A stretch of DNA of 64,000 nucleotides from a virus (lineage: Duplodnaviria > Caudoviricetes), in the IMG/VR virus record IMGVR_UViG_3300032226_000829; one strand, given 5' to 3'. Both the position numbers and the translations under genes were made by a program. The notes beneath the pieces were generated by a model, which was not told the origin of the DNA, did not search any database, and saw only the letters and a list, made by a program, of their open reading frames with translations. This document shows, piece after piece, positions 5,971-52,000 of this stretch; positions within the stretch are counted from its first letter, which is position 1, and the number at the start of each line of letters is the position of its first letter.

Positions 5971-5978
5971 TATAAATA
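5971..5978 (+). promoter_or_regulatory. T4-type late promoter TATAAATA
   Basis: Exact T4 late consensus 33 nt upstream of the fibre-like gene; TAGGAG SD at 5995-6000. Confidence 0.7.
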
Positions 5979-6011: not shown

Positions 6012-7373
6012 ATGGCATTCAAAATAAGACGTGGCACAAACGCACAAAGATTACTGATAACTCCAGCAGAAGGAGAATTAATCTACACTACAGACACCAA
6101 AAAACTGTTCACAGGTGATGGTACAACTTTGGGTGGTGTGGCTGTGGACACAGGCACTGTGGCGTTTTCAGGCATTGCATCAGATGTTACTCCAGATGTG
6201 GACAGCACAAGAGACATTGGTGCCACAGGCAACAGATGGGCCGAAGGTTGGTTTGACAATGTGTATGGTGCATTCACAGGTGCTCTCACAGGCAATGTCA
6301 CAGGAAATTTATCAGGCAATGTCACAGGTAATGTCACAGGAAATTTAATAGGCAACGTGTCAGGTGACGTCACAGGAGATCTCAACGGTTCAGTGTTTGC
6401 AGATGATTCCACAGCAATGTTGGATGCCATACAAAAAAGAATTAAAGCAGATGTGTACAGCACAGCAGGCACATTATTATTGAGCACCAACCCTGCCACC
6501 AATGTGGTCAGCAACGGTGATGTGGTAATCACAGACAACGTGGTGACTCTGTTGAACGGATTAGACAATATACAATTAGGCACCAACACTTCAGCATTAG
6601 GAGTGGGATTAAGAATTAAATCACCAGTTATCAGTAACAAAGCCATTGAAACCACTTCACTCACAGATGGTAACAATGCTGACAGTTTTGAAATTCAAGT
6701 ATCCAGAGGCACTTTAAGTATTCCCACTTCTGTGCAACAAGGTGATCCACTGTTCACCATAGTGGCCAATGGCTATGATGGATCTGCATACAGATTTTCC
6801 AGTGCCATGTTTGCCAATGTGGAAACAGACTCCAACAATCCAGTATCACCAGGAGCAGTGCCAGGCATCATAGGTTTTGTTACTTCTGCAGATGGTGGAG
6901 CCACTACAAAAAATTTAGTATTCAATTCATTTGGTGAACTAGGAGTGAACTTAACCACTCCCACTGCCACATTATCAGTAGCAGGCAATGCATCTTTTAA
7001 TACTACAGCTGGTGTGGAAAAAGTTTTAACCGGAATGAATTCAGGCACATACACACAAGTGACCAGCAGCACTCTGGAAACCTACACAGCATTGACTTAT
7101 GCTCACGCAATTTACAGAGCAGCCAAAGTGACCATTCACGTGCATTGGAGTGCCAATGACAGCTATATTGGAGAATTTTTGATTGCGAACGGTACTGGAG
7201 CAGCCAGCATACAATCTATTCAATCCACATTTACCGGCACCAACCCAGTGAATGCCGTCACAGCTGATATCAGTGGAGCAAACGTGAGATTGAGAGTGCA
7301 GACAACTAACACATTTTCATCTGGTACGGTTTTCAAATACGAAGTACACTTCACTAACTTCGTAGCATACTAA
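6012..7373 (+). CDS. tail fibre-like virion protein
   Basis: N-terminal KIRRGT...PAEGELIYTTDTKKLFTGDG (Mtd/hyaluronidase N-terminal type); GNVT repeats; Thr/Gly/Ser-rich; late promoter. Confidence 0.7.
   Translation: MAFKIRRGTNAQRLLITPAEGELIYTTDTKKLFTGDGTTLGGVAVDTGTVAFSGIASDVTPDVDSTRDIGATGNRWAEGWFDNVYGAFTGALTGNVTGNLSGNVTGNVTGNLIGNVSGDVTGDLNGSVFADDSTAMLDAIQKRIKADVYSTAGTLLLSTNPATNVVSNGDVVITDNVVTLLNGLDNIQLGTNTSALGVGLRIKSPVISNKAIETTSLTDGNNADSFEIQVSRGTLSIPTSVQQGDPLFTIVANGYDGSAYRFSSAMFANVETDSNNPVSPGAVPGIIGFVTSADGGATTKNLVFNSFGELGVNLTTPTATLSVAGNASFNTTAGVEKVLTGMNSGTYTQVTSSTLETYTALTYAHAIYRAAKVTIHVHWSANDSYIGEFLIANGTGAASIQSIQSTFTGTNPVNAVTADISGANVRLRVQTTNTFSSGTVFKYEVHFTNFVAY
6276..6383 (+). repeat. 9 degenerate 12-nt tandem units (consensus ACAGGMAATGTC) encoding TGNV/TGNL repeats
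   Basis: Direct reading: acaggtgctctc acaggcaatgtc acaggaaattta tcaggcaatgtc acaggtaatgtc acaggaaattta ataggcaacgtg tcaggtgacgtc acaggagatctc. Confidence 0.8.
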
Positions 7374-7384: not shown

Positions 7385-8533
7385 TTAATTTTTTAACAAT
7401 TTAGATTGTTTGATTTTATAATCAGCCCAACTGCGATTGGTCCATTGAGAAGGTTTGTAATCTATATTTTTTGATTGAATACCATAACATGCTGGCACAG
7501 TATCATACAGTATCATTTTTTTATTCACTGCAGCATCACGCAACATAATTTGATGTAAAAAATTAGTGACAGGTTTGCCTGGCACAAAATCACACCAAGG
7601 TCCGCACTTTAATTGTTCCAAGTCAATGGTTTTAACATCACTCCATTGTATAATTCTATGAGTTATGCCATTGATATTCACCATGTAATGATAAAGATTA
7701 TCGTCGGCAGGATGTTTTTCCCAAGTCCAACCTTTACGTTCACAAATTTGTTTGATCAATTTGACATGATCACTGAGATAAAATCTAGGTTCATCAGGAG
7801 ATCTACCTATGTCTGATCCGGCTCTTATTCTGTATTGCCAACTCTTATGTCCTAAAGATTGTATTTCTTCCAGAACATGTTCCATATGATCCAAACTTTC
7901 CAATGTATATCCCACATAGTACACAAAAATTCCTTCAGCAATACAATTGTCTATGCCTTGCAGTTGTTTTTGATGCACAGTTGCTCCTTGATAGGAATGA
8001 TGATTCAAACCAATCATAACCATAGTGGTTCCAGCATCAGCGATTTCTTTTACCCAAGCTCTGTCAGACAACTTTACTCCATTGGTCAATATGCACACAT
8101 CTTCAGGTCTGTTTAATCTTTTCAACAATGCTTTAATTTGTCTAATTAATTCTGGCAAGTCTTTACGCACAGTGGGTTCAGCACCAGCCAATATCACAGC
8201 ACCAGATTCTGCATGAAATCTATGTTCAATCTGATCCAATATTTGTTCGATGGGTCTATCAGCTTGTTTATTGTCAGGTTTATGATAACAGTGCGGACAA
8301 TTTAAATTACATTTGTCAGTGACTTCCACCATGATCCCATGAGGAATGGTGTATCCTGAAACATCATAGTGTAATTGTTTATAAAATTCTACGTCTCTTT
8401 CTATTCTAATGTTTTGTGTGCCATGTTCAGCACAAGTCTTGGTTAGATACACTCCAGAATCTCTTGTTTCTCTCACTGCTTCACAGTGTCTATAACAGAT
8501 ATCACACAAGCTAGTAGTTTTTATATCTTCCAT
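7385..8533 (-). CDS. radical SAM enzyme, MJ0619/Tes-like N-terminus
   Basis: CNLNCPHC; GAEPTVRKDLPELI; TNGVKL; N-terminal SLC-x2-C...KTC-x2-HG. Confidence 0.85.
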   Translation of the reverse strand: MEDIKTTSLCDICYRHCEAVRETRDSGVYLTKTCAEHGTQNIRIERDVEFYKQLHYDVSGYTIPHGIMVEVTDKCNLNCPHCYHKPDNKQADRPIEQILDQIEHRFHAESGAVILAGAEPTVRKDLPELIRQIKALLKRLNRPEDVCILTNGVKLSDRAWVKEIADAGTTMVMIGLNHHSYQGATVHQKQLQGIDNCIAEGIFVYYVGYTLESLDHMEHVLEEIQSLGHKSWQYRIRAGSDIGRSPDEPRFYLSDHVKLIKQICERKGWTWEKHPADDNLYHYMVNINGITHRIIQWSDVKTIDLEQLKCGPWCDFVPGKPVTNFLHQIMLRDAAVNKKMILYDTVPACYGIQSKNIDYKPSQWTNRSWADYKIKQSKLLKN

Positions 8534-8535: not shown

Positions 8536-9225
8536 TTATTTGTACAGTGCTATGGCAGCATCTATAAAATCCTTAGGGTAATTGTTTCTAAAACTTTCCA
8601 AACACAATATCTGCAAGCTGGCAAAGTCTGTGGGAGTGTGCATGTCAATATTTAGTTCATGCATTTTGGGCAGCAAAACTGTTCTCCTGTCTTGGGATAT
8701 GTGACTGAAATGATCCTGCACAGTGATAAGTGGTTCGCTTTTGTGATAACAAAAGAAATAGTTAACACTTTTTAATTTGCCTTCCACCACAAAATAACTG
8801 CTGGGGTGTAAACTGTATTTGTATAATCCTAATGTTTTGTGTGCTTGCAAAATCTCCAACATCTGTTCACGCCAATTGGGCAGCACTGCATCCATGCCCA
8901 CTGTGTGACTCTGTTCCCAAAAATCCACGCCATCAACGCCAAAGATAATTTTTTTAGCGTCATAGTCCAGTTCTAATATGTCAGGAATGTGTTCTGGAAA
9001 ATTGTGATGCATCATCAGCAGCATGTCTACTTCTCTCTGCCATTTTTGTTCCATTAGTATGGGATCCATCACTTCGTTTTGATCTTTGTGATAAGCTGTG
9101 TCGTTATGAAACCATTGCACAAATTCTGTTTTATTTTGATTGATGAGGCTGGTGTACACAAGATTGTTCCTGCACAATCCTTTGCCTGGCACATTGTTGT
9201 AATAGTATACGTAGTCAGTTACCAT
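8536..9225 (-). CDS. degenerate protein-kinase-like/phosphotransferase-like protein, paralog of 17497..18132
   Basis: Similar N-terminus and (Y)K-S-L-H/Y-P-x-x-F/Y segment in both paralogs; the fold call is inference. Confidence 0.45.
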   Translation of the reverse strand: MVTDYVYYYNNVPGKGLCRNNLVYTSLINQNKTEFVQWFHNDTAYHKDQNEVMDPILMEQKWQREVDMLLMMHHNFPEHIPDILELDYDAKKIIFGVDGVDFWEQSHTVGMDAVLPNWREQMLEILQAHKTLGLYKYSLHPSSYFVVEGKLKSVNYFFCYHKSEPLITVQDHFSHISQDRRTVLLPKMHELNIDMHTPTDFASLQILCLESFRNNYPKDFIDAAIALYK

Positions 9226-9773
9226 CTAGGATATCTTTCCAATTGTTTGTAAAATTCTTGAACATTTAATTGCCATACAGTTTGATTTGTGCCTCTGTAT
9301 TTTATTTGATCGATTTTTTTCAAACATTTAGATTCTGCTAACATGGGTGCCCAAATATTATGCACTAGACGTTGAGTGCCTTCACTATTTTCATTGGTGG
9401 TCACATAAAGATTATTTTGCGATCCAGCCCATTCAACACAAGTGGGAATAAAAAATTGTGGAGTGACGCTTTGATGCGTGAGTATGCCTGTTTTGGTTCT
9501 TAATCTTGAGATAGGCAATTGATCCGTGAACACACAAGTTCTACACAATATTCTAAAACTATTTTCACCCATTTCAGGAAAAGAATGAGCGCCAGTAGAC
9601 CCCACTATTTTATTGTTGTATTTAAGCAACCAAATTTTCCATTTTTTTTCTGTGGAGATGCTGTCCACCAACATTTTTTTATTACTGTTGTTTTTGAATC
9701 CTTTGGATTCTGCTTGAAGATAAAATTCTGTTAAATCAACCGATTCAGAATATGGTACCAATTTATAAGTCAT
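9219..9773 (-). CDS. GNAT-like acyltransferase
   Basis: Size 184 aa; WLLKYNNKIVGSTGAH strand pair, RILCRTCVF, LYVTTN pattern. Confidence 0.5.
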   Translation of the reverse strand: MTYKLVPYSESVDLTEFYLQAESKGFKNNSNKKMLVDSISTEKKWKIWLLKYNNKIVGSTGAHSFPEMGENSFRILCRTCVFTDQLPISRLRTKTGILTHQSVTPQFFIPTCVEWAGSQNNLYVTTNENSEGTQRLVHNIWAPMLAESKCLKKIDQIKYRGTNQTVWQLNVQEFYKQLERYPRW

Positions 9774-9791
9774 AAATTATTTTGCTCTCAA

Positions 9792-9807
9792 TATTTAACA
9801 CTAAATA
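9792..9807. promoter_or_regulatory. back-to-back late-promoter cores (TAAATA on - at 9792-9797, on + at 9802-9807)
   Basis: Both lie in the 39-nt gap between divergent genes 9773(-) and 9813(+). Confidence 0.6.
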
Positions 9808-9812
9808 TTTGG

Positions 9813-10619
9813 ATGATAAGAGGAATTGGTGGCCGACCATATATTGATTTAACTCCACATTTGGATATAGAAGGTTTTAGGAAATTACATCCTGAAATTT
9901 GTCGAGGATTTGCTTTGGCTAGAGAATATGCCAAAGAAGGCACATGGATGTCGCCAGGATTTAATCTACAAGACATGAGTTATCAATTGAATTGGAAACC
10001 AATTTATATGGCTGTGAAAGAATATCTTGCACTGCCCACAGATCACCCTATTAGAAAAAACGGTGATGATTTGTATGCCAATATCAAAGATTACCGCACA
10101 AGAAATCAATTCACACGCTACCTCAAAGCAGTGTTGGGTGCCAAAGATCCATACATCTATTATTTTTTATGGAATGAAGGCGATTGGGATAATAGAAATT
10201 CTGAAAGACATCTCACAGAAGAAAGCAAACATTTTCCTGGATTGGTCACATGGGTTAAAAATCTTGTGGATCAAAACATTATCAGTCAAATAGGCAGAGT
10301 GATATTTTTTCACTGTGAACATGATGGACAACCATTTGAACACAGAGATCTAGATGGCAAACTGGGTGATCAACAAGGGTACAGTGATCATCGCAATGAG
10401 TTCATACACATACGTTATAACACCAAAAGAGGATTTTATATCTGGGATCCTGAAACAAAAAACAAAACCTACATCAATGCCAATGCAGCTTTCTGGAACG
10501 ATCAAGACTGGCATGGTGGAGAAATCAATCGTGAACAAGAGTATGGATTGAGAATTGACTGTGTGTTCACCGATGCATTTAGAAAAAAATTAGGCATCGA
10601 TCATTTAAAAAATTATTAA
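9813..10619 (+). CDS. Fe(II)/2OG-oxygenase-like (double-stranded beta-helix) protein, paralog of 16199..16954
   Basis: HRD ... WNDQDWHGG ... LRID putative HxD...H...R set. Confidence 0.55.
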   Translation: MIRGIGGRPYIDLTPHLDIEGFRKLHPEICRGFALAREYAKEGTWMSPGFNLQDMSYQLNWKPIYMAVKEYLALPTDHPIRKNGDDLYANIKDYRTRNQFTRYLKAVLGAKDPYIYYFLWNEGDWDNRNSERHLTEESKHFPGLVTWVKNLVDQNIISQIGRVIFFHCEHDGQPFEHRDLDGKLGDQQGYSDHRNEFIHIRYNTKRGFYIWDPETKNKTYINANAAFWNDQDWHGGEINREQEYGLRIDCVFTDAFRKKLGIDHLKNY

Positions 10620-15624: not shown

Positions 15625-16202
15625 GATACTGTGAACCTCACTATCTGTATAAATCTACTGTCCATGCTGCTGCCATGTCCGTATTCTTCAATTTCAAACA
15701 TGATAGGATTGACTCCTTGCCAAAAAAATTCTTTTTCTGCACTCAAGGTGGTACCTGCTTGCACGTTTTGATTGTGTATCAGTGTTTCGCCATTCAGTTT
15801 AAAATGGAAGTATTCTTGACTGATACCAAATTTGTCATTGAAAGATTGCAATGATTGTGCATCACACAGTGATAAGTTATAGGTAAATTTACATGACCAC
15901 CAGTCTACATCTTTATAAATCAACTCAATTTGAGCTGTGAGTTCTATTTGTTTGTCATCATGCCAACTTTGTTTATTTTGTAGTACCAATGTGTTATTGT
16001 TTTTTTGTAAAACAATTTCAGCGCTTCTGCTTATGCTTTTTTTTTCAGCAGTTTCCTTGCTTAATTCTATGGTATCAAACAATACAGAGTTGTTCCATTG
16101 CAATATCAATTGATCCTGTAACTTGCCTTCAGCAACCAGTTCATTGGCTACATAAGAAGAACGCATCACTGGAAAATAATCAAACTGTAATTTTTTTTTC
16201 AT
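15621..16202 (-). CDS. hypothetical protein (193 aa)
   Basis: ORF track; 4-nt overlaps on both sides. Confidence 0.7.
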   Translation of the reverse strand: MKKKLQFDYFPVMRSSYVANELVAEGKLQDQLILQWNNSVLFDTIELSKETAEKKSISRSAEIVLQKNNNTLVLQNKQSWHDDKQIELTAQIELIYKDVDWWSCKFTYNLSLCDAQSLQSFNDKFGISQEYFHFKLNGETLIHNQNVQAGTTLSAEKEFFWQGVNPIMFEIEEYGHGSSMDSRFIQIVRFTVS

Positions 16203-16954
16203 TGTTTTAATTGAGCCATTAATTCTTTGTTAAAGATACCTTCTATCCTCATAGACCAACTCACGTTATTGGTATTTTCTACTCCGCCATGCCAATCATG
16301 ATTGTTCCAATAGAATGAGCTGCCAGGAGTCATGTGTATTTTTTCGTCTCCGTTTTCCACATACAAAGATCTAACATTCATGGGATCAAACCATATAAAA
16401 TGCTCTTCCTGTTCATAGGGTTCCATCTGTAAAAAACAATCTCTGTGTTTGGCAGTTTTTAATCCAGAATTTTTCAATAATAGTATGATTGGTCCCAATG
16501 GTTCAAATGGCAATTTTTTAGCCCAATCCACTAGTGATGGAAAATACTTGGATTCTTCTGTCCATCTACAGTCATATATTGGTTTTTTATTTGCATCATA
16601 AGGTAGATATGGAGCGTTAATACATCTATCAAATTCTCTTATCACAAGATAATTCAGCGCTTCGTACACAGGATACTGATACATTAACCAGTAATGAAAA
16701 CCCACCATGTCGGTTTTTTCCAACTCTGCACCGTACTGTTTTAGTTTAGGATCTGTTTCTTTATCACGCCAATAATTATAGGCTCCTTTAATATCATCCA
16801 CATATTCTTCATGATTTTCTATGCCGTAGTTCAATCTAATATGTGCGTGAGCTTTGCCTATGCCGTAGTGAACATCTTTTGTGATGTCTTTTAATTGTTG
16901 TATATTCACATAGGGATCCATACAGATGTATGGTTTGCCGTAAACACCTTTCAT
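16199..16954 (-). CDS. Fe(II)/2OG-oxygenase-like protein, paralog of 9813..10619
   Basis: MKGVYGKPYI vs MIRGIGGRPYI; HRD; WNNHDWHGG; MRIE. Confidence 0.55.
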   Translation of the reverse strand: MKGVYGKPYICMDPYVNIQQLKDITKDVHYGIGKAHAHIRLNYGIENHEEYVDDIKGAYNYWRDKETDPKLKQYGAELEKTDMVGFHYWLMYQYPVYEALNYLVIREFDRCINAPYLPYDANKKPIYDCRWTEESKYFPSLVDWAKKLPFEPLGPIILLLKNSGLKTAKHRDCFLQMEPYEQEEHFIWFDPMNVRSLYVENGDEKIHMTPGSSFYWNNHDWHGGVENTNNVSWSMRIEGIFNKELMAQLKQ

Positions 16955-16955: not shown

Positions 16956-17504
16956 TTATCCCCATATGTTAAAAATATATTTGGGCACTAATCCTGCATT
17001 GGATCCTGCATGCCATGAAGTACGTTTGGGCCATTTCCAAGTGGCTCCTGTTTCTTGATTGTACAAACAATGATCTTCCACAATTAAAACATGTCCTGGT
17101 GCTGGTGGACTTATGTGGCAATGAAATCGAACTATTTCTTTTTTGTGTTCTAAAGTTTTTTCATCGTCGGTGATATCCCAATGCCAAGGTGCTACGTCAC
17201 CAGGTTTTACTCTGCTGATCCAAGCATTGATATAACTGCTCATTCCCACCCATTCACAAAACTTTTCCGCTATCTTTTTATCAAAATTTGTGCCTGGTAG
17301 GTACATGTCCCAACTGGCATTGCCGCCTTCGTGTTTCATCTTATATCCAGCTTCACGCAATGGTTTGGCCACTTCTTCCACACCGGGCACATGATGTCCC
17401 ACATCATGTCTTGGTCCTATGTAAGCACTCTGTTGATCTTCAATGCTTTTTATAATACTGTGCCAATCAATCAGATCTTTGCAGTTACCCACATATTCAA
17501 GCAT
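16956..17504 (-). CDS. aspartyl/asparaginyl beta-hydroxylase-like 2OG-Fe(II) oxygenase
   Basis: VKPGDVAPWHWD, RFHCHI, WHAGSN. Confidence 0.7.
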   Translation of the reverse strand: MLEYVGNCKDLIDWHSIIKSIEDQQSAYIGPRHDVGHHVPGVEEVAKPLREAGYKMKHEGGNASWDMYLPGTNFDKKIAEKFCEWVGMSSYINAWISRVKPGDVAPWHWDITDDEKTLEHKKEIVRFHCHISPPAPGHVLIVEDHCLYNQETGATWKWPKRTSWHAGSNAGLVPKYIFNIWG

Positions 17505-18132
17505 TTAAAAAATCTCCTGGCCAATTGCCATAATTCATTTCCACAGTTAATTCATACAATTTAAAAGTGTCATACAATTCACCCACAAGACTTTGAGCAA
17601 ATCTAGGATGAGTGGGATCAAATAATATGGATTTTAACAATTCCTTGGACACATATCTATCTTCGTCACAGGTACAACCGTAAAGATCCATTATGCGAAC
17701 TTTGTTTTTATCATCCAAATAAAATGTGTGTGGATACAGATTGGATTTGTGTATGTTCATTGACAATAAGTCTGACAAAATGTCTTTGACCTGTTGTTGC
17801 CAGTTGGGCACTGCGGATATTTCGCCTGTGTGTATGAGTTTGCTTAGACTACGATCATACCATTTGAACTCAATGGTTCTATTTCTGTGATCAATGTTTA
17901 AGATTTCAGGAGCATATGGTTTATTTTTTAATTTTTCTATATAATTGATTTCTCTAGAAAACCAATTTTGTCTAAAGTCATCTGTCATATTGGAATTAAC
18001 AAAATATTGATTGCTGTTAAAATTCATTTTAAATATATCTTTGTCAGGACTAATCAATGGTTCATACACCATGTTGGCAATGGCTAATGTGCCCAGTTCA
18101 TGTTTGTAAAAATTATTCCAATATTTCATCAT
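17497..18132 (-). CDS. protein-kinase-like/phosphotransferase-like protein
   Basis: FKM lysine, REINY, APEIL, HKSNLYPHTFY catalytic-loop-like segment, IMDLY (DFG-like). Confidence 0.55.
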   Translation of the reverse strand: MMKYWNNFYKHELGTLAIANMVYEPLISPDKDIFKMNFNSNQYFVNSNMTDDFRQNWFSREINYIEKLKNKPYAPEILNIDHRNRTIEFKWYDRSLSKLIHTGEISAVPNWQQQVKDILSDLLSMNIHKSNLYPHTFYLDDKNKVRIMDLYGCTCDEDRYVSKELLKSILFDPTHPRFAQSLVGELYDTFKLYELTVEMNYGNWPGDFLNA

Positions 18133-18858: not shown

Positions 18859-19902
18859 ATGTCCAATTTCGAGCAGTCAAATTTCAGTGATGAATCGTCA
18901 GTCAATGCTGGCCAATCATCTGAACAGTTAATCAGGATACAGAGCAACCAAAAAAAAGATAGTTTTAGGATAGAATTATTCCTCAGCAACAGATGCAACT
19001 ACAAGTGCTGGTATTGTTTTCCAGGATCCAATGAAGGCACACATGGTTGGCCTGATCTTGAAATAATCAAAAAGAATCTTTCCCATCTTATTGAACACTA
19101 CAAAAAAAATATTGGCAAAAAAGATTTCTATCTGCACCTCATAGGAGGTGAACCCACCATATGGAAAGATTTTGGAGAATTTACCAAATATTTCAAAGAA
19201 CAATTCAACTGTTTGATTAGCATGAGCACCAATGGATCACGCACACTGAGATGGTGGGAAGAATATGGTCATTACAATGACATTGTGATGCTGAGCTGTC
19301 ATCATGAAAGAGTGGACGTGCCACATATTGTTGCTGTGGCAGATTTATTGTATAAAAAAGGAGTCAGCGTGGATGCTAACGTGCTGATGGATCCACATGC
19401 TTGGGATAAATGTGTGGCCATAGTGGAGCAGTTAAAATCCAGCCGAAAAAAATGGGCTATAAATGTGTTGGAGATTTATCACAGCACAGTGAATTATAAT
19501 GCAGAACAAAAGAAATATCTCAGTGACTGCAACAAAAGAAATCCGTCATTTTTTCAACTGTTCAATTGGAAAAAAAGAAGGTTTGAAAAATTCAATTCCA
19601 CTCCCACATTACATTTTAACAATAAGAAAAAGAAAAGAGTATTACAAAATTATCTTTCATTGAACAGTATGAACAATTTTGAAGGATGGCAGTGCAATGT
19701 GGGTGTGGACACCATACAGATCGACAAGCATGGATTAATCAAAGGCTCTTGTGGCAATCGTCTTTATAATTTAAATCGTTCATTCAATCTGTTCAACCAT
19801 GATTTTACTGATAACTTTTACCCTGATATTGTGCCCACAATTTGTGAAAGAAAACGTTGTACTTGTCAACCCGAAATCAACTGCAATAAAAAAACTTTAT
19901 GA
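18859..19902 (+). CDS. radical SAM enzyme with a C-terminal Cys cluster (SPASM/twitch-like)
   Basis: CNYKCWYC, GGEPT, STNGS, WQCNVG...GSC...C-x4-CTC; start moved from 18820 to ATG 18859, downstream of TAAATA. Confidence 0.88.
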   Translation: MSNFEQSNFSDESSVNAGQSSEQLIRIQSNQKKDSFRIELFLSNRCNYKCWYCFPGSNEGTHGWPDLEIIKKNLSHLIEHYKKNIGKKDFYLHLIGGEPTIWKDFGEFTKYFKEQFNCLISMSTNGSRTLRWWEEYGHYNDIVMLSCHHERVDVPHIVAVADLLYKKGVSVDANVLMDPHAWDKCVAIVEQLKSSRKKWAINVLEIYHSTVNYNAEQKKYLSDCNKRNPSFFQLFNWKKRRFEKFNSTPTLHFNNKKKKRVLQNYLSLNSMNNFEGWQCNVGVDTIQIDKHGLIKGSCGNRLYNLNRSFNLFNHDFTDNFYPDIVPTICERKRCTCQPEINCNKKTL

Positions 19903-20720
19903 GTAACACAGAGCAATTAAAAACAATTTACGAAACCAGTGTGTTCAAAAACATATTGCATCTAGTTGATGATGTGTATTTTCCTTTGGCCAGCCAGTGG
20001 AAAAACATTGGCGTCAGTGTGAGTGGTGGTGCTGACAGTGCTTTAATGGCATATCTGCTGTGTGATTTGATTGACAAAAATCAGTTGAATATCACTGTGC
20101 ATATTATTACCAATGTTAGATGTTGGAAAACCAGACCTTGGCAGCGTCATAACAGCATGGAAGTTTATAACTGGTTGACTGATGAATTTAAAAACATAAA
20201 ATTTAAAAGACACGAAAATTTTATTGCTCCTGAACTGGAATGGGGATCCAAAGGACCCAGCATTGTGGATGAATATGGTAGATTAAAGAGTGGCAATCAA
20301 ATAGAACTAAGAGCACATGCTGAATATGTGGCTCACACAAAAAAATTAGATGCTTGGTACTGTGGAGTGACCAAGAATCCCGATAAAGAATTTGATCATC
20401 GTCTCACTGACAGAGATGTGTTGCTCGACACATTGTCTGACACAGTGCTGGACAGATTAATCAAAGCACACATGGGCGGCTATGCTTGTCACCCTTTCAC
20501 TTATGTGCAGAAAGATTGGATAGTTGCCCAATATAAAAAATTAGGCATAATGGACCTATTTGATCTCACTCGCAGTTGTGAAGGTGACCGCGACACATCA
20601 CCTAAAATCTTTGGAGACTTGGACTACAGGACTTATGTGCCGGGGCAGCCCGTGCCTGTGTGTGGAGAATGTTTTTGGTGTCAAGAGCGACAATGGGGAG
20701 TAGACAGTGTCAGACCATAA
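19899..20720 (+). CDS. QueC-like PP-loop ATPase (adenine nucleotide alpha-hydrolase)
   Basis: SVSGGADS PP-loop; TRSC...CGECFWCQER Zn-binding motif as in QueC. Confidence 0.72.
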   Translation: MSNTEQLKTIYETSVFKNILHLVDDVYFPLASQWKNIGVSVSGGADSALMAYLLCDLIDKNQLNITVHIITNVRCWKTRPWQRHNSMEVYNWLTDEFKNIKFKRHENFIAPELEWGSKGPSIVDEYGRLKSGNQIELRAHAEYVAHTKKLDAWYCGVTKNPDKEFDHRLTDRDVLLDTLSDTVLDRLIKAHMGGYACHPFTYVQKDWIVAQYKKLGIMDLFDLTRSCEGDRDTSPKIFGDLDYRTYVPGQPVPVCGECFWCQERQWGVDSVRP

Positions 20721-40051: not shown

Positions 40052-43000
40052 TTATTGCGGCAAACTCACTTCTTTTGCACGCAAGAATCTTGCTATGTCA
40101 TTCTCCGTTTGACTCAAAGGAGTGCTGTTGTTCCATAATTTACCTATCCTACGCACCACAATAATCTTGGTATTTACTGGTGGTGCCACCAATAAAGTGC
40201 AGATAGTGGATGTGCCTGACACACTGAATTCAGCTGGTAAGATCACATCTGCTTCAGGACTGTCCATGCCCAAAGTGGCATTGTAGCTACGGATGCTGTT
40301 TTTTCTCAATCTACGGCCTGCCACAAACACTTCAAACTCATTCACTGACTGAGGTATCCAACTTAAAGTGATGTTTTCAGTGGATCCATCACTGGTGAAT
40401 ATTTCGGTAATGGTTTCATCTTTGTAAGGTACTGTTTGGAATGCTGATTGATCAAACACTTCAGTGCCCGATTCATAATTGTCTTTGACACCTGTGCCCA
40501 GTGTGCCTCTGCGCAGTTGACCCACTCTGTCTGCAAACAACAAGAAGTATTCTATTCTTTCTCCATCAATAAACAACACTCCTGGTCTACCCAAACTCAC
40601 GTTTGGTTCTGTTAATCCCACTGTATCGCTTAATAATATTTCTTGACTGTACCAATGCAATGTTTGAGTAAGATAATATTTGTTATCATTGCCCAAACGT
40701 TTGTAATGTGTTCTGTTCAGCATATCCTTGAACTGTCTGAAACCAAATTTGGACACATATTTGGGTGCAGTAAAATGTATAATATCTATCACATCATTGG
40801 CTTGAATGGTAGATTTAATTTTTAATGTTTGTTGATCATTGGATACTTTGTAATCCACGCTGGGAGACAACACTGTGCCATTGATGGCCACCCAAACATA
40901 CTGTGCATCCACAGCTGATTGTCTCAATCTCACAATACCATTGGTTAAATTTTGATATTCAAAATAATTGTTGGAATTTACCACCAATGTGTCTCTGGCA
41001 ATGATATCATAATTTGTTCTTTCTATCTGCAACACATCATGATTGGTAAACTGCCAAACTTTAATAGTTTGTCCCAATGTGGGTGCTGTGTCCAAAGTCA
41101 AAGTGTATCCACCAGATCCGCCTATCACATAATCACCGTCACTGATCACATACACTTTTAAAATGTCTCCCACAGTGCCTATGCCAGCTTCCAACACCAC
41201 ACTGCTGTTGGCACTTTCCCAACGATATTCCACAGAGTTTAATTCTACACCATTCAAAAATGCTCTCACATCAGTTCTCAGTACTGAGCCAAAAGGTTGT
41301 TGCCAACTTTTGAGAGCATATTCTCTCACTGCTGTGACATTGAATCTTTCATTGTAACCAGCATTTAAAATATTGTTGCCCACTTTCACTATCACGTTGT
41401 GTGTCAAAGGTTCTTGATTGAAAGGAGTTTGACTCAGATCATACACAATGGTCGAACCATCACCAGTGAATTCATCATAGGTTACTTCACTGAATGTTTT
41501 GCTGACGCTGCTGTAAATCACATAAGTGATCACACTGCCCACTGCTGGAGGCACTGCAAATCTTATCAGTGTTTTATTGGTGTATTGATAACCACTGTCG
41601 GTTTCTTCCAACACATAAGTTGCTGTTTGTCCATTTACCTTCACAAAAGAGGATTGATTGATATTGAATTTTGCTCTGGTCACAAATATAAATGTGCTGC
41701 CATCTCCTGTGAATACATCTGTGTCCACAATTTTTTCACCATTCATGCTCATAGTGATGATATTGATTTGAGCATTGTTGGCTGGCACACTGTTCAATAC
41801 TACTGTTTTGTTGGCAAAGTTTGTGGTAAAGGCTGAATTGTCCAATATCTGATTGTTCACTTTGACAAACACACCTTCTTGACTTTGTGGCAATGAGTCT
41901 ATGGCAAACACAGCCGTGCTGCCATCACCTAAATAATTGTAACTGTTGATTCTGCTGCCGGTTTCTCCTGATCTATCATACACCTGTATGTCCACAGTGT
42001 CCAATACCTGTCCTGGCACCAATTCTTCTGGACCTTTGCTGGTGGTAGGAGTCACAAATCCATCACCATCCACAATGATATCTTGTGATAAAATTCCTGT
42101 TGCTGTGTTGTAGGCCAGATCACCACCCTGCAGCAGTGTGTCATAGGCATCTGGGTCTGGCAAGAAGCTGCCATCACTGGTGCTTTTGCGTATCACTATC
42201 ACATCATTGGCCACTGTGGGTATCAATTGTTCATTTATTTGAATCACTGTGGTTGATCCATCACCTTGAATGGTTTTCATCAATGCGTTGGGATTGGTCA
42301 CTGGTTGAGCAGTGCCGTAGTTAGGATCATCTATTCTCACACCGTTCTTGTAGATGTTGTAGATTGCTCCTGCAGACAACGCTTGACTCAAATTAAATGT
42401 ATTGGTACTGCCGTCCAATCTAAACACTTCATCTTCATAAGTGGTGTCATAGGTATCCCAAGTGGTGGTAAAATATGGTTCTGAATCCCATCCTGTGCCA
42501 CCGCCAAATGACAAGCTGCGCACTTCCACTCCACCGTAGTCTATGCCTTCTATCAGTTGAGCCAAATCGTTGCCCAACATGCCTGTGATAGGTTCATATA
42601 GATGATTCACTCTGTCTTGAGTTTGCAGCACATTGGCATCTATCTCATATTGAATTTGAATAGCACTGCCCAATGCTGGTGGTTGTTCAAAAGTTATTCT
42701 GCCTTGAGTTCTCAAGTATGATTTTGTGTTGTCTTCTTCGTTACTGTACACATACTCGCTGAACAACGCAGGTCTTTGATTCACTATCACTTTGACTTTG
42801 CTGGATTTGAGATTGATGGGCCATTTCAAAGAGTATGTCAATTGATTGCCTGTGCCCACAAAAGTTTCTGTTCTTGTTAGATTGCTGATCAATAAAGTGC
42901 CAGTGGTTCTATCAAATTTAACTCTGATGTGTGTGGATTTGATCAATGAATCTCCCAATATGGCCACTGCTTGACCTGCCACACCTGTGGTGGACAATGA

Positions 43001-46000
43001 GCCAGATATGTTCACTGTGGGTGCTGATAGATAACCAGATCCTGAATCCACTATCTGAATGTGTGTTAATCTGCCATTGCTCACGAATGCTTTGGCTGTG
43101 GCTCCTGTGCCTCCACCACCTGTGATGGTAATCGTAGGAGTTCCCAAATATCCACTGCCCACATTGGATATTTTAATTGTTGTGACTTTGAATCCCACAT
43201 TATCCAACCAGTGTTTGTTGGGATAAATGCTGGTGATATTTGAATTTGCAATTTGATCATTGATAACTTTGGCATAACTCACCACAATTTTTTTAGATAC
43301 TGGATCATAAGTGGCTGGTAGATCAAAATCAGTGACATTTACTCTGGAATTATCAATGGATTCATAAGCACTGATGTATTCTCTCACTTTGGTTTTGTAA
43401 GGTTTTACTTCATTGATGTAATCTTGATAATTGGATAAATTATCATTTTTATAAACCACACGCTGATTAAGTTCCCCCACATTGTGTTGAGCTTTGACAA
43501 AACTAGTTTTGAATGCCCAATCCACAAAAGATTGTTCAGAAAACACATATCTCAAACTGGAGAAGAATAATTTATTGTATTCCACTTCCAATTCATCCAC
43601 AAAAATGTTGTCTCTTAAAGTTTCTAAAATGATTCTTGTTTCTGTGATGGGTTGATTGTCATAAACTGTGACATCATAACTGGTACTGTTGAATCCCACA
43701 GTGGATTGAGAAAAATTATATAAAGAATTAGAAAATTGCACAGTTCCATTCTGTCTACCTATGGTTTTGTAATTAATTGTGTAGTCCACATCATTTTGAT
43801 TGTCAATTTTTTCTAATAATACCCAACCACCAGTGCCTACGTTTTCAATTTTAACAATATCTCCCAATTCATCATTGATTAATAAAAGTTTGTAGCTGTC
43901 TGACACTGTGTGATTAACTTCAGTAAATTTACTGTAACCCACACTGTACCAATCATCATAACTCCAATGCTGATTAACATTGTATTTTTGAGATAAAATT
44001 CTTTGCCATTCCAACAAATCAGAGTCCCATTGATGAATGGACCATTTATTACCGATTTCAGAATCTGATTGTATCAACACACTGAATTTTCTCACTTCAA
44101 TTCTTGTGTTGGCACTGTAGTTGCTGCCTTGTTTGTTCACTGTGACTGATGTGATCTGTCCTGATATGTTGATTTCAAACTCTAATTCAGCACCTGATCC
44201 TGTTCCTGGTGAATCAATAATTTTATATGTTGGAACTACTCTGTAACCTCTGCCAGGATTCACTATAGACACATCAACAATTTTATTGTTTTGTATCACA
44301 GGAATCAATACTGCTTGTTCAATGTTAGCTGTGCCCACGAATGATAAGTCAGCCAATGTGTCTTTGGTTAAATCATACAATCTTGTTATGGTGCTGGGAG
44401 ATTCCTCAAATTCATTCAGTCTGCTGATGTCACGTGTGTCTGTGATTAAATTTGTTTTACAAACAGCATTTACTCTTTCAATCACTTGTTTGAGTGCTTC
44501 AATACGATTGACAAACCATCCTTGTCTAGGTTTTCTCAATGTGCCATATTTGTATTTGAAACTTAAATCTTCATCTGGCACTGATCTGAATTGTTCATCA
44601 TAACCAATCAAACTGTTGAACCAAACAGCTTCAATTTCTTTTTTGGGTTTGCTGTATGGAATTCCTTCACTGATCAATTGAAATTCATTGTGAATGTTGA
44701 TGTCTTGATTTTTAATGGTCCAAATTTTAAAGTTTATTGCTATGTCTTTGTTTTCCAAAAAATTATCAATGTTGTTCACAGCAAATTGATTTTTAGACAA
44801 CAGCGACACAAACTTATAGCCTTGTTTTTTAGGATCTTCTATCAATTGAAACACTTCATAAGCACTTAATTTTCTGCTGTCAATGTTGGGTAATATTTTT
44901 TTATTTTTAACCCAATAGTAATATCTATTGCTAAAACTATTGGAAATAAAATCATAAACTTGTTTGGACACATACACTGAATTGTTATATTTGGTTGTGC
45001 CGCTGATTCCCAAAACAATTCCTTGTTTGGTATCGGATAAATTATTCCATTCTGTGGGCAAGTATTTGGATTCCACCCATTCATACACATCTATGGAAGA
45101 ACCTGGAAATATTTTATTCCAATAATTGGTTGTAAAAATAATATTGCCTTGATTGGCATCATAAAATTTTACAGTGCTTAAATCCCACCACAATCTACCC
45201 ACTTGTTCTTTGTGCCAACTGTTTTGAGCATCAATGCTCAATCCGCTGATACCCACGGTGTACACTGCAGGATCATAGTAAGTTTTGTAATATAACTCTT
45301 GTTCAGCTATGCCAGCAATTTTGCCTTGAATAGGATCTATATAATCTAATTTTTGCAATAACTTATTGTTCTTTGTATTGTATAGAAAAATTTCTTTTAT
45401 CTTGTCAACATCAACAGACATCACAGGAGTTTTATGAGCATTCCATGTTTGAGTTAGATTTGGTTTTCTAAAATCAAAAATTAATCCTTCAGTGTAAGGA
45501 GAACTGTGATCATTTAGATAGTTGGATAAAGAAGCATACACATGATTGTTGTTAATTTTTATATTTTTTCCAAAATTAACAAGATCTTGATCATTCACGC
45601 TGAATTCATCAGCAAACACAAATACATTATTGAAGTTTTCATACACATATATAGACCCAGTGTCCAATAATTTATTATTGAATGTGGTGGCACCAGCATC
45701 AAAATATGTGTTGTTGGTGTCCAAAGAAAAATTAATCTCCATGTCACCATTGAGACTGGAAATTGCCAATGTGTCACCATCAAAATCTAAATTAGTTCCA
45801 AATTTTTCTGTGGTTTGAGGTTGAGGACTGGTGAGTGTTTGAGTATTGACATATACTCCATTGGTTTGTTTGAATACATACACCACTCCGCCATCAGTGG
45901 CTGTTTGATCTGCTTGCGGACTGCCCACTGCTATGAACATGCCGTCATTGCTGACTGCCACAGCATTGGCAAAATCTGTGTTGTCTTCTCCACTGTCTGG

Positions 46001-49000
46001 TGAAATCAATGTTTGTGAATATTGATATCTGCCATTCACCAATCTATATATCACTACCTTATTTTGTGTGGGTGAACTGCTGTCTATAAAATCTATCACG
46101 GACACTGCCAACACTGAACCTGAATCGTTCACATCAAATGTGTATCCAAAATTTTGCAATTGACTGATGTTGATTGTGGAATCCCCTTCCAATGTGGGAG
46201 TAGAATCATCATTGGGATCATGAGGCACATATCCTTGATAATCTATGCCTTCAGTCTGTGGTTGCCAAAAAGTAGACACAAAGCTGGATGGTCCTTGATT
46301 GGTCAAACTCTTGTATATGATATTATTATAAGCTATCAAATCATTGGTACGATAGACTGAACTGATATCAAACAGTCCTGTGTAATTGGGATCCACACTC
46401 AAATTCCAGTTTTGTGTGCTGGATTTTTTAACAAAATAAATTTTACCAGTGTCTGTGGCAGTGGCTGCTGAACTCACATACAGCGTGGTCACAGCATTGT
46501 GTTGTCTTAAAATAGTTTTTAAACCCAAGTTTGTACCGTTGTTCATGTTAGGCACAAGGTAAGAACTGGTCAATGCATAATTGCCATTGGTCAATCTTTC
46601 ATAAATCAAGAATAATCCTTGATTGGTCAATGCCGAAGTATATCCAAGACCAGCTGGAATATTGAACACTTGTTCATAATCTCTATTAATTCTGGAAGGC
46701 ACACTGGCTGCTCTGCTCACTCCATCCTGTGTGATATCTTGATACAAATAATATTCCAAACCATTTATAAAATGATATGCGCTGTTGCTGGTAGGAACTA
46801 GAGCAGATCCTTGATCAAACACAAACAATGAGCCCACCACTGCATCTTCCAATTCACTGCGTTGAATCACTCCCACAGTTCTATTTGGCGTGCCGATCAA
46901 TGTCAAATTGACTGGCGGACCAAAGTCAGTGCCCACACTGAACGATCCAGTTTTATTTTTGACATAAATCTGTAATACATTAAAGCCCACCACTTTAACA
47001 TAGGTAACTTCTGCTTGACTGCCTGTGGCATCATCCTGCACAGTGTCACCCACTGTGGGCACATAGAATGTTCCCAAACCATCTGGTTGTGCCAACACTC
47101 TTAAAAAACCATTCCATACATCAATTATTTCTTTCACACCATTGAGATCCTCAAAAGGTAGATCCAAAGCAGTGGGTTCTGTCACTGATAGAGGAACTCC
47201 TGTCTGTATGGTGTTGAACCAAACTCCCACTTCATCATAGGTAGCCGTAGGCAGCACATCACTCATTGCTTTGGGTGCTCTGATCAAATATCTGCTGTCG
47301 TCAATGCTGCCTGTGAATGCACTGTAACCTGGAATAGTGAATTGCTTGTCATAGGTCAGTATGCTTAACTGACTGGCAGGTGTGATAATAGTTGGCAATA
47401 CTGATTGTGATTGTTGTGTGTCTAAACTGTTGAAATACAAGAAAGCTGTGCGAGGATCGCCCGCTTTGATAATGTCTCGTATCACCAATGATTTTTTTGA
47501 GTCAGCTTGAGCTGAAACTGTGCCAGGAGAAGGTATGTTGATCAACCACCATCCTGCCAATGTGAGATCATAATCTTCTGCAATCACTCTGGTATAATCT
47601 CCCACAGGAAACACGCCTAATTTGATCTGATCTGAATCAGCAAAATTTCCATTCACATTGCTGAGATATATGATAGACTGTGTGCCTTGACTGAATACAT
47701 AAACAACTTCTCCATCTGCATCTTCAGTGCTGAGTGTGTCTCCGACTGTTGGAGTCAGAAGAGTCAAATCTATGTTGATAATTTCATCCACTTTCTCTTG
47801 AATGGTATGAGCACCATCAATAAAAGTTTTGTCAATGCCTGTGGCTGTGCCATTGAATGGTGTGTTGCCAGTGGGATATTCAGTGGTCAAATTATTCCAA
47901 TACAACACCAAAGTGTCGCCCACTGCACTGCCTCTGTATTGTTGTGAGCCAGCTCGGATCAATAGATGATCAGTGCTCACTCCTGCTACGGAATAGTTGC
48001 CTGTGATCATCTGTTTGATTGTGGGATAAACATTTATGCCCGCATCAAATTCAACTTCACTCCAAAAACTTGCAGCGTCAAATGTGGTGAAATCCACTGA
48101 AGGATCTTGACCCAACACTGGGTTTACCACTTTCCACAATTGTTCTTTGTGTTTCACAATATCACCCACATCGTATGCAGTGATTGTTGAATAATTGCCT
48201 TTGTAATAACTTCTAACTTGAGAAGCCTTGGGCGCTCCCACCACAATATATTTCCCGTCAGCACTGATGTCTAAACTTGCACCAAAATCAGCATTGCCAG
48301 TCCAAATGTTTTGTGGCACATCGATCACTTGTCTCAGAGTGAACTGTCCAGAATCTGATCCTCTTTTATAAATGTAAATTCCTAGATTTAGATCAGACAC
48401 TGCCATCACATTGTTGCTGCCATCCACGCTCATGGCTGTGCCATATGATGCCATAGAATCTGTGTTAAAGTTGACAATCTGCTGATGATTTTGCCAAACT
48501 TTATTATTTTTTAAAGTGACCCATTCAGCATTGTTGTCATCTTCCACCCAAAACAGATCATTGTTTTTGAATCCACCCGAGTCTTGGGCCTTGGCGTTGA
48601 TGGATTCTAAATTTGAAAGTTTGTTGCTGACAAAGGTACCCAAGTATCCATAAGAAGATCCATCATTCACGGTCAACACTGTGTTGCCGTTTTTATGACA
48701 TACTATTTGATCCAGTGACACAGTTTTTACTTTGAACAGTTGTTTGGAATTCTGTTGTGGTATGCTCACAGATATTATGTCATCCACAGACACATTGCTG
48801 TACAAATCTGTTACCACAGTGACCAAATTGTTGGCTTCAGTCACCGATAAAACTTTATAATCTGTTTTGATATGTTTGTAAACCTGCCAACTTTGTTTGA
48901 AAAATCCAATCCACACATATTGATCAAATTTAAGTTTGGCAGTGTCAATGGATAGTATGTCATCATAATTTTTTAAAATAAAATCCACATCATTGGGATC

Positions 49001-52000
49001 CACAAATCCTGCTGTTTTGATGTATTTTTCAAGAATATTTTTTTCAGGAAAAGGATTATGATTGTAATTTTCTGATTTCAAATAAGTTTCATCTGATTTG
49101 ATTCTATAAACAAAGTCAGGATCTATGGGATTTAGATCGTTGGTCAATGAAATTGGTTGTGGATTCAATTTGAATTGTTTTTCATCCAACACATATTCCA
49201 CTTCATCAAAGCCTGTCGCCGCACCATATTGTCCTGTTCTAATGGCCCATTCTTCATAGAACTCAATGCTGTCTTTGTTGGCACTGGCCAGTGAATTAAA
49301 CAATTTTTCCAAAGCATTCTTGGTGCCTTTGTCCTGTAAAAACCCTTGATAAAATTTGTACTGTGCCACATCATCATTGATAATATTTTGTAGATATTCT
49401 CTCTTTTGATATCCTATCAAATGTTGAGCAAGTTTTTGTTGCTCCACATCAAAATTATCTGTGTCCAAATCATAAAAGTCACCAAACTGATTGGTTTTGT
49501 ATTCAAAGTTGGGTTTCAATGTGCTGACTGGTTTTTCAGACAGTTTGGTCCACTGATCAAAATCAAATGTGCTGGATCCTGTGACGTTTAGATTGGCACT
49601 GTAATAGAATTGTTTGTATTTGACCACATCACTCATGCTGTAATCTGTGAATGGCTGCCATTCACTTATTTTCACTTCATCATACATGAATCCTGGCACA
49701 TTCAAGGAACCATTCCAATTACCCACCACATATCCTATCACTTTGATTCTGTCCTGTCTATACCCTGCTGCAAAATCATAGATCACATCATTGAATACTG
49801 TGACATTGTCAATCAATACCACATGTTCTTTTTGAATCAAAGGTATTTTAACAAAATAAATTCCGTCACTGGTGTTTTTCACACTCAAAGTAAAGTCGTT
49901 GTTTTGTCGCACCACGCTTAATTTTTCTTTGGAAATTTTAATACCATCTGCTTTGAGCACTGCATAATCATAAAAATTATCAAACACATTGTCAGCCACC
50001 GAAAAAGATGTTTTTAACTGGATTTTATTGGCTGCCGGACTCAATGACAACACTGCTCCGGATTTCCAGTTTTGTGTGGTCCAGAACATGAACTCTTGAG
50101 CACTGAGATTCCAATTTTCCACAGCATTGATTTCCTGATTAAAATTATCAAACACAAATCCTTTGGATTCTAAATATTTGCTGTAGCCCAATAAAAAGTC
50201 TACCACATGCTGTTGAGTGGGCAGCACTGTGCCATAATTTAATACACTTGTTTCTTTTTCAAAGTTTCTACTGAACACAGCAGTGATGCCACCTTCAATG
50301 GGCAATGAACTTAGTTTGACAAATTTAGAAGAATCAAATTTACTGCCACTCAGATGATCTCTTTCAGCTTGATAAAATTGATTTTGATACTGAACAATCT
50401 GACCAGCACCGTAGACTTTATTGGAGATCCAACTCACATAAGATTTGCTCACTCCACCCACTTTTTTCACAGAATCATTTTGTTTTTTAATAGGAGCAAA
50501 ATATTTAAATTCTGGCAGTGTTAGATCATATCCCTTGACTGAAAAACCTTCTGGAAGTTTTTCCACAATCACAGCACTGTACACCAATACATCAATGGGT
50601 GAACTGGAATTCAAATGAATATCATAATTTTCTTCAGGCACAAACACATTGCTTTGATTCAGTGGTGATCTGCTGTCCAATAACAATTTAAATTTTTCTT
50701 TTTCTGTGAATCCTTTCACTTTGAATCCCAACTGTTGAGTTAATTCAGTCAAAGTGTTTTGATAATCAGCATATTTGGTCAATACATCTGTTTTGATGTA
50801 ATTTGAAATATAATTCACCAAGCCAGAAGTTAACACATAATTTTCATCTGTTCTACTGTTGGGAAATACTAAATCTTTCAGAGTGATTCTTTTTTTAGTG
50901 GTGGTATATATTATTTCATCCGTGATATTTTTTACAATTCTAGAAGCGTCAAAATTTACACCCATGGTGTGGGCTGGTCTGTTCAACAGCATGGACTTTA
51001 ACAGAGCAAATGGATAATTGGAACTGCGTCTCCAAGCGTTTTCCACTGGAGCTTGATCACCAAATTTAAACTGTTTGGATGATAGAGTTAATATTAAATT
51101 TTTAGCGTAGTTGCTGTTGATTGGACTCAACAGTTCACCGTCCTCGTTCACGGGCAAATGATTCAACAAATCCGTTCTCACAAATCTTGGATCGTAAACA
51201 ACTTTTTTGCCTGGTTCTCTGATCACACCAGCCTGAAGATCTTCCCAAAGAATCAAGTTGTCACTGGTGTAAGGTGCTGGACCATACACTGTGTTCCACC
51301 AAGTAGGCTGTTCGCTGAAGCCCAACATCTCCCAAGGATGACTGTGTGGTCTATCTGTGTCATAGGCTTGTTTGTATATGGCTCTCCAAAATCCCAACAA
51401 TGGAGTGCCAGCAAACGACAGCATGTGTGAATGATTGAACGTAAAACTGTTTGATCCATCATAGAAAAAATTATTAGTATAATCCAAAGTGCCCACCATA
51501 CTGTTCCATTTGATGAAATCAGCAGACATAGACTGATCAATGTTGGAAGTTTTATATCCTGTGTTTCTAAATTCTCCTGGAACAAAATCAAAAATGTTTC
51601 TTATGTCTTTGTTGTATTCAATTTTTATATTGTTATAAATTCTTTTTTCAAGTTCCAACAATAGTTCATCTCTGTAATCACCATATGCCACAATGATGCT
51701 GCCATCGTGCCCTTGAACAACATCCACTGGATTGATCAATGTGTGATCTGTGTATATTTGTGGTTTGTATCTTGGATACAATCCTAATTTGGTTGGTGTG
51801 GATGGCACATAGTTGCCGTTGGTGCTTTCATATTCATATATTTCCACCAAATCGTTCACTGCTAATGCTGTGTTGATCACACAAAAATTGTCACTGTTGA
51901 ATTCATAATTAATTTTATGATACAACTGCTCACCATTCAAATATACCTGAACTGCTTTGGTATTCAGTTGAGCCATGCTGAACTGTTGACTGAGAGCAAA

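Follow-up and report, generated by a model that had tools for sequence, protein, structure and literature searches.

A predicted single-cluster relative of GDGT-MAS encoded with GNAT-fold partners beside phage virion genes

The 64,000-nucleotide stretch of viral DNA analysed here (the window; IMG/VR record IMGVR_UViG_3300032226_000829; Duplodnaviria, Caudoviricetes) encodes a radical S-adenosylmethionine (SAM) protein of 382 aa, P0001, in an open reading frame (ORF) with an ATG start at positions 7385-8533. An earlier, sequence-only reading had assigned it the N-terminal rubredoxin-like site and core of the lipid-coupling enzyme MJ0619 (GDGT-MAS)/Tes, and had proposed C-C coupling or cross-linking as its activity. 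The ORF proved to be real and lies on the minus strand, the plus-strand reading of the same interval being interrupted by many stops. Two Pfam families match over their gathering scores in N-to-C order: Zn_ribbon_HMPTM (PF23545, 'HMPTM N-terminal zinc ribbon'; residues 5-41, E 5e-12, 45.6 bits with a cut-off of 27) and Radical_SAM (PF04055; residues 69-223, E 1.4e-19, 71.4 bits with a cut-off of 29.5). The only other Pfam match is a weak one to Fer4_12. HMPTM presumably reflects an older methyltransferase annotation of MJ0619. The features of the gene are as follows:

7385-8533, minus strand: radical SAM gene (P0001, 382 aa), ORF with ATG start; PF23545 and PF04055; AlphaFold 2 (AF2) model with a predicted local distance difference test (pLDDT) score of 95.1
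8411-8521, minus strand: mononuclear metal site C10-x2-C13-x20-C34-x2-H37, residues 5-41, from PF23545 and ligand conservation
7865-8329, minus strand: radical SAM core, residues 69-223 (PF04055), with C75-x3-C79-x2-C82 and a GAEPT (GGE-type) SAM motif
7484-7864, minus strand: conserved C-terminal domain, residues 224-350, from the alignment of 30 homologues and the structural alignment

All of the motifs quoted in the sequence-only reading are present in the translation: SLCDIC (C10, C13), KTCAEHG (C34, H37), EVTDKCNLNCPHC, in which CNLNCPHC provides C75, C79 and C82, and GAEPTVRKDLPELI, which includes GAEPTVRKD. In an alignment of 30 homologues C10, C13, C34, H37, C75, C79 and C82 are invariant, and across 103 homologues with identities down to 22% each of these seven ligands is conserved at 90% or more. 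Together with the PF23545 match, this conservation argues that the N-terminal site is not a chance pattern. Among the cysteines after C82, C197 is about 90% conserved in the 30 homologues and C310 and C314 vary, in line with the earlier remark that C-terminal cysteines are few. Invariant in the C-terminal domain of the same alignment are R235, R237, R244, D277, N279, H282, R293, H327, R332 and D333. The domain is basic, with a local isoelectric point (pI) of 8.7 (range 8.7-10), and the whole protein has one of 6.8. A search for SPASM/twitch (PF13186) gave no match in the protein at E up to 1, and the protein has no conserved C-terminal cysteines. The gene had also been described as unlike the seven other radical SAM genes of the window, and this held: the seven PF04055 genes (at 18820, 20707, 22741, 23711, 24606, 26465 and 27447) have different architectures, none carries PF23545, and the nearby ones are SPASM-type (PF13186). 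Between two of these genes lies a QueC-like protein (19899-20720, plus strand; phrog_1550, E 1.7e-5), far from other que genes.

The closest solved structure is that of GDGT-MAS. In this enzyme the rubredoxin motif is C9X2C12X20C33X2H36; it has three [4Fe-4S] clusters. The ligands are C73, C77, C80 and a His for [Fe4S4]N, and three Cys with Met439 for [Fe4S4]C, which allows C(sp3)-C(sp3) coupling through a carbon-sulfur intermediate (PMC9433317). Amphipathic helices of its C-domain form hydrophobic pockets for lipids. The phage protein has the same Cys3His mononuclear site, with identical spacing, and a core with the same CNLNCP-type and G(G/A)EPT(V)R-D motifs, as the sequence-only reading had recognised. 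A sequence search of the PDB (phmmer) returned GDGT-MAS (7tol) first, at E 2.8e-17, followed by MoaA at 1.8e-4, and Foldseek with the AlphaFold model likewise placed GDGT-MAS at the top (E 2.6e-19, against 1.2e-8 for the next match). Structural alignment to 7tom with VIA gave Z 30.3 and a root-mean-square deviation of 3.6 over 328 residues at 24% identity; MoaA came next at Z 17.7, in a second tier of MoaA, viperin and BlsE with Z 16-18. The alignment places model residues 1-339 on GDGT-MAS residues 0-483 (328 of 382 residues; 498-residue chain). Because it reaches model residue 339 and GDGT-MAS residue 483, the modelled resemblance is taken to span the whole protein, most of the C-terminal domain included.

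Membership in the Tes family, by contrast with this overall likeness, is not supported by the sequence features that define the chemistry. For [Fe4S4]N, neither P0001 nor the family alignment has a single cysteine between residues 35 and 74, and for [Fe4S4]C the 30- and 103-homologue alignments show no conserved three-cysteine set beyond C82, so that the check for auxiliary-cluster ligands suggested in the earlier reading came back empty for both clusters. GDGT-MAS is longer by about 120 residues, and the linker from zinc ribbon to core is some 23 residues shorter in the phage protein. Aligned to L031, a Tes-like protein from Bathyarchaeia, the phage protein is without the N-cluster insert and without a C-domain insert of about 90 residues that is found in L031 and mid-length relatives; only its C310 pairs with a cysteine of L031. 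With the NCBIfam Tes model (NF045702), whose cut-off is 450 bits, the protein reaches 69.7 bits, its best stretch being residues 68-179. The top NCBIfam score, 96.4 bits against a cut-off of 490, belongs to the TrsS model (NF045646), which aligns only to the core (residues 67-212); TrsS and the phage protein belong to a common superfamily with zinc ribbon and radical SAM core. In a FastTree phylogeny of 117 superfamily members, which is no more than indicative since it has local supports only, L031 as the single Tes-like anchor and neither MJ0619 nor TrsS among its tips, L031 and P0240 group together within a clade of mid-length cellular proteins (385-454 aa), and phage proteins of roughly 305-385 aa form clades separate from it. 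The lack of auxiliary-cluster ligands, the missing inserts and the score below cut-off thus speak against Tes membership, and of the proposed placement the structural half survives and the family half does not. On alignment and model, both auxiliary clusters appear to have been lost, with the Cys3His site, the radical SAM motif and a GDGT-MAS-like C-terminal fold retained. We are confident in assigning the phage enzyme to the zinc-ribbon radical SAM superfamily, to which Tes/GDGT-MAS and TrsS also belong, as a member with a single [4Fe-4S] cluster.

The family was then traced through sequence collections. A word-indexed search found 343 homologous clusters at 90% identity, and the near-full-length members among those listed almost all combine PF23545 with PF04055. 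An exhaustive search of 50%-identity cluster representatives gave 3092 matches at E<=1e-3, 514 at <=1e-10 and 68 at <=1e-30; the best 150 are mostly 305-390 aa long and align over nearly their full length. The IMG/VR collection yielded 163 loci of the family, and the nearest structural cluster of the ESM Atlas has 879 members, 100% of them from viruses. A pattern scan of one genome for each of 185,579 prokaryotic species returned only N-terminus/core matches of 23-34% identity, mostly generic SPASM-type radical SAM genes caught by the CNLxCPHC pattern, with L031 the only Tes-like one. As judged from these sequences, the family appears to be virus-only as far as the cellular-genome scan reached. 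Among the cultured phages of INPHARED, tblastn with P0001, P0234 and P0164 gave weak core-only matches or none, and a 15-kb piece of the window had no megablast match; BFVD contains no real relative. A literature search found no paper on phage MJ0619/Tes homologues or on radical SAM and GNAT genes in phage tail modules. The contigs that carry the gene are up to 200-373 kb long, with genes for rIIB, Mtd_N fibres and baseplate proteins of T4 type, and members at 27-34% identity are likewise found on phage contigs. Twelve T4-like loci (L150, L152-L158, L160, L161, L163 and L164) have two zinc-ribbon radical SAM paralogues in tandem rather than a split gene, for example at 2-454 and 447-1508 of L154.

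In the T4-like phages the gene belongs to a recurrent neighbourhood. ORFs were clustered over 84 sources, the window and 83 fetched loci, and five families stand out:

7385-8533, minus strand: radical SAM enzyme, in 83 of 84 sources
8536-9225, minus strand: A229, protein-kinase-like fold (TTK profile match), in 79 of 84 sources
9219-9773, minus strand: B184, GNAT fold (AF2, Foldseek, VIA), in 70 of 84 sources
9813-10619, plus strand: C268, Asp/Asn-beta-hydroxylase-like cupin (alignment, language-model neighbours), in 67 of 84 sources
6012-7373, plus strand: Mtd_N-type tail fibre gene (PF18454, E 7.2e-10), in 57 of 84 sources

B184 is the first gene of a B184-A229-radical SAM operon, in which B184 and A229 overlap by 7 nt and 2 nt separate the end of A229 from the radical SAM start downstream. 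C268 is divergent from B184 across a 39-nt spacer, and the fibre gene is convergent with the radical SAM gene, their stop codons lying 11 nt apart. The quartet of radical SAM enzyme, A229, B184 and C268 is kept together at 46% and even 34% identity despite shuffled order and strands, and across the T4-like clade an Mtd_N fibre gene is adjacent to the radical SAM gene or within about five genes of it. No lipid genes are found around the radical SAM gene in the window or in the T4-like loci. Enzymes are numerous in the island, which also has genes for a class-III aminotransferase and a 2-oxoglutarate (2OG) oxygenase as well as an epimerase-like gene. Other copies and partners occur nearby or in relatives. 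In the window, members of the C268 and A229 families form a second cupin and pseudokinase-like pair (16199-16954 and 17497-18132, minus strand) with no radical SAM or GNAT partner. In L004, a 373-kb relative, a Trp-halogenase-family gene (PF04820, 3997-5592) shares the quartet island with an AdoMet decarboxylase and an Asp_Arg_Hydrox gene.

The best 50 Foldseek matches of the B184 model (pLDDT 92.1) are all GNAT acetyltransferases. It aligns to PA3270 with VIA Z 12.8 over 156 of 184 residues, and its fold matches by VIA include the sugar N-acyltransferases FdhC and PseH. A229 matches the TTK kinase domain by profile (E 3.6e-5) and Bud32 weakly (E 0.015-0.075); it has no catalytic Asp, the catalytic loop reading YKYSLHPSS. 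C268 has invariant H177-x-D179...H234 and R247 in its alignment, and 9 of the 30 clusters nearest to it by language model carry PF05118 (viral Asp/Asn-hydroxylase). Searching the PDB sequences with B184 and C268 profiles returned nothing usable, and PHROGs gave no match for A229, B184 or C268. Complex prediction of the radical SAM enzyme with B184 gave a score of 0.00, which carries no weight for or against binding.

Several further observations concern the fibre gene and the intergenic sequences. Residues ~86-126 of the fibre protein (window positions 6267-6390) contain a run of GN-x-(T/S) repeats, GNVTGNLSGNVTGNVTGNLIGNVSG..., that stacks N-x-S/T sequon-like motifs; since an island with Asp/Asn-hydroxylase-like and glycosyltransferase genes adjoins, Asn modification might take place in these repeats. 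The sole exact copy of TATAAATA, the T4 late-promoter consensus, in the 64-kb window lies at 5971-5978 (plus strand), 34 nt upstream of where the fibre gene starts, and the radical SAM operon has no exact copy upstream. Two TAAATATT octamers, at 9790-9797 (minus strand) and 9802-9809 (plus strand), face each other within the 39 nt that separate B184 from C268; the window has 12 copies of the octamer, where 5.5 are expected. Further along, a single ORF of 4895 aa (40052-54739, minus strand) lies between fibre-like genes and a baseplate wedge gene.

A second setting is provided by members at 27-33% identity, which lie inside the structural module of 35-60 kb podovirus-like contigs, one of which has SU10-type capsid and adaptor genes. 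Hidden Markov models (HMMs) of A229, B184 and C268 have no matches in the podovirus-like loci L168 and L170, so the quartet is specific to the T4-like clade. The podovirus-like gene order, established from a second harvest (loci L174-L189), is a Phage_stabilise-like gene, in some loci a B12-binding radical SAM gene, the zinc-ribbon radical SAM gene, a GNAT, a phrog_598 protein and large internal proteins. Start and stop codons overlap in the module, which is translationally coupled, and no other annotated enzyme genes surround it. The GNAT adjoining the radical SAM gene is about 150 aa long (PF00583, E 5.9e-8; motif HRGRGL). The ejection protein matches phrog_598 ('DNA ejection', E 9e-32) and is rich in Gly, Ala, Ser, Asn, Gln and Tyr. 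The additional radical SAM gene occurs in five podovirus-like loci, with its domains verified in one of them:

6871-7995 of L176: B12-binding radical SAM gene (PF02310 and PF04055), directly upstream of and overlapping the zinc-ribbon radical SAM gene; family f5, also in L174, L175, L177 and L182

Five proteins (P0183, P0203, P0219, P0223 and P0234) carry the GNAT as a C-terminal domain fused to the zinc-ribbon radical SAM enzyme, and on the tree these fusions have at least two origins. In P0268 (565 aa), residues ~330-565 form a GT-A-like domain with a DSD motif in place of the GNAT, an assignment made by eye where Pfam has none. Longer fused forms (670-2000 aa) were sought and none were found, which is weak evidence.

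From these contexts we consider a functional partnership between the radical SAM enzyme and a GNAT likely. The function that we tentatively favour, as a whole statement that takes in the substrate class, is that of a single-cluster radical SAM enzyme acting with a GNAT partner on a virion-associated target. The cluster held by C75, C79 and C82 would cleave SAM to give a 5'-deoxyadenosyl radical, perhaps with electrons fed to it by the N-terminal metal site, and the radical would take a hydrogen from a polar, non-lipid substrate in the Arg/His/Asp-rich C-terminal domain. The GNAT-fold partner, whether B184, the separate podoviral gene or the fused domain, would either deliver or acylate, and hydrogen abstraction could lead, for example, to epimerisation, cross-linking or an acyl-derived addition. 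The substrate is probably something other than a lipid. That it is a virion protein is a somewhat doubtful proposal taken by itself; a virion-associated protein encoded next door, undergoing post-translational modification, would be the most likely target, given the tail-fibre neighbour in T4-like phages and the ejection-protein operon in podovirus-like ones. In the window we infer the fibre gene product (6012-7373) as the candidate. The neighbours have a protein-modifying flavour, among them the Asp/Asn-hydroxylase-like cupin, the kinase-like fold and the SPASM-type radical SAM enzymes.

A number of points weigh against this proposal. Adjacency to virion genes may merely reflect a hypervariable accessory island near the T4-like fibre genes. 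The radical SAM family has neither a recognition element for peptides that are synthesised ribosomally and modified after translation (RiPPs) nor a SPASM domain. The acetyl-CoA loop of B184 is divergent, reading NSEGTQ instead of R/Q-x-x-G-x-G/A, and hhalign did not connect B184 by sequence with the GNATs of the podoviral loci or of the fusions; with no profile similarity and a divergent loop, the argument that the two phage groups use the same partner is one of fold. The second-tier fold matches MoaA, viperin and BlsE are nucleotide or nucleoside enzymes, and the GT-A-like fusion of P0268 hints at sugar chemistry.

In a small-molecule alternative, the radical step would act on a nucleotide-linked sugar or an amino-acid-derived metabolite (dehydration, deamination, epimerisation or decarboxylation, as in DesII, BlsE and viperin) and the GNAT would N-acylate the product, as part of a glycan or guanidino island decorating the virion. 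What keeps this alternative alive is the wealth of genes for tailoring sugars and amines in the T4-like island, with its class-III aminotransferase, 2OG oxygenase, epimerase-like gene and many other enzymes, and the FdhC and PseH matches of B184 agree with it, as do P0268 and the second-tier folds. The latter are, however, generic for radical SAM cores, and the 35-60 kb podovirus-like phages carry enzyme and GNAT between structural and ejection genes; a multi-step metabolite pathway is disfavoured there, since no other annotated enzyme genes surround the module. On balance we regard tailoring of a small molecule or sugar nucleotide as unlikely. Elp3 combines a radical SAM domain with a KAT domain, and the radical SAM-then-GNAT order of the phage genes, fusions included, mirrors this architecture. 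The 5'-deoxyadenosyl radical could be imagined to take a hydrogen from GNAT-bound acyl-CoA, and the resulting acyl-derived carbon radical to add to a base of phage DNA or tRNA with C-C bond formation, as Elp3 does on U34. A phage precedent for a DNA-modifying GNAT fold is Mom of phage Mu, which is described as a GNAT-fold, acetyl-CoA- and iron-dependent DNA modifier and treated together with Elp3 (PMC7261163). The basic C-terminal domain (pI 8.7-10) would suit a nucleic acid, although the whole protein is near neutral at 6.8. Against it, Pfam gives PF04055, PF23545 and weak Fer4_12 only, with no Elp3-specific domain homology; no nucleic-acid-binding domain was detected in the radical SAM protein; and the genes sit in structural and ejection operons, not in replication or nucleotide modules. 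A nucleic-acid target is possible, lacks direct support and seems quite unlikely to us.

Two further explanations fare less well. The radical SAM enzyme and GNAT might themselves be internal virion proteins that are ejected and find their target in the host as soon as it is infected. The podoviral genes, translationally coupled and flanked by the Phage_stabilise-like gene on one side and those for ejection or internal proteins on the other, would allow this. An oxygen-labile [4Fe-4S] enzyme would be unlikely cargo in oxic water, though, and the T4-like genes lie in an enzyme island rather than among head-internal proteins, so this explanation is improbable. The C-C coupling put forward in the sequence-only reading, understood here as C(sp3)-C(sp3) coupling of the Tes/GDGT-MAS type with lipid tails of the host or a different aliphatic compound as substrate, draws on the closest solved structure and the identical rubredoxin-like spacing. 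It is contradicted by the absence of both auxiliary clusters, including [Fe4S4]C, which parks the substrate radical in the published mechanism, by the 69.7 bits against 450 and the missing C-domain insert, by invariant C-domain residues that are polar or charged, and by the lack of lipid genes nearby. While the structural analogy to GDGT-MAS, as modelled, appears correct, chemistry of the Tes type is not supported and is very improbable.

A more speculative extension of the proposed action on virion proteins, and one that is rather unlikely, is that these phages mature their own virion proteins, the adjacent ejection protein or tail fibre, by radical modifications with a RiPP-like cassette. 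Such a cassette would consist of the Tes-derived single-cluster enzyme and the GNAT, joined in podovirus-like phages by the B12-radical SAM enzyme and in T4-like phages by the Asp/Asn-hydroxylase-like cupin and the pseudokinase-like protein. It could introduce, for instance, D-residues, C-C or C-X cross-links, C-methylation or acyl-derived additions, and if it exists it would make the infection apparatus different in its stability or in how it forms channels.

Within a known superfamily, the enzyme represents a phage-specific and as yet uncharacterised variant, with a clear partner and context. Previously a single solved structure, that of an archaeal lipid enzyme, represented the GDGT-MAS fold. 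In uncultured phages the fold is widespread in a minimal form that combines a rubredoxin-like site, a radical SAM core and a reduced C-terminal domain and is predicted to have no auxiliary clusters. The coupling or fusion to GNATs and the fibre or ejection modules, in two unrelated phage morphotypes, make it a testable idea that radical chemistry matures the infection machinery. Such genes should not be annotated as tetraether or lipid synthases, nor as 'MoaA', as JGI does.

Set beside known systems, the phage family differs from GDGT-MAS/Tes in that those enzymes serve lipid biosynthesis, whereas its own neighbours are GNAT and virion genes. Elp3 is an analogue in working logic only: there, too, a radical SAM domain comes with a GNAT, in N-to-C order, as a pair or as a fusion. 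Such an arrangement points to radical chemistry linked with an acyl-CoA site. The two have no detectable homology beyond the generic radical SAM core, however, and the phage enzyme has a different N-terminal domain, no tRNA-binding features and a virion-gene context. Peptide and protein maturases encoded beside their substrate genes, such as the epimerase PoyD with the B12-radical SAM enzymes PoyB/C (proteusin) and anSME, are again comparable in working logic alone. Unlike them, the phage module has no SPASM domain, RiPP recognition element or evident leader peptide, and its putative substrate is a structural protein of 220-530 aa. The podoviral arrangement, in which a B12-radical SAM enzyme, the zinc-ribbon enzyme and a GNAT are coupled to an ejection protein, nevertheless resembles a precursor-plus-maturase cassette.

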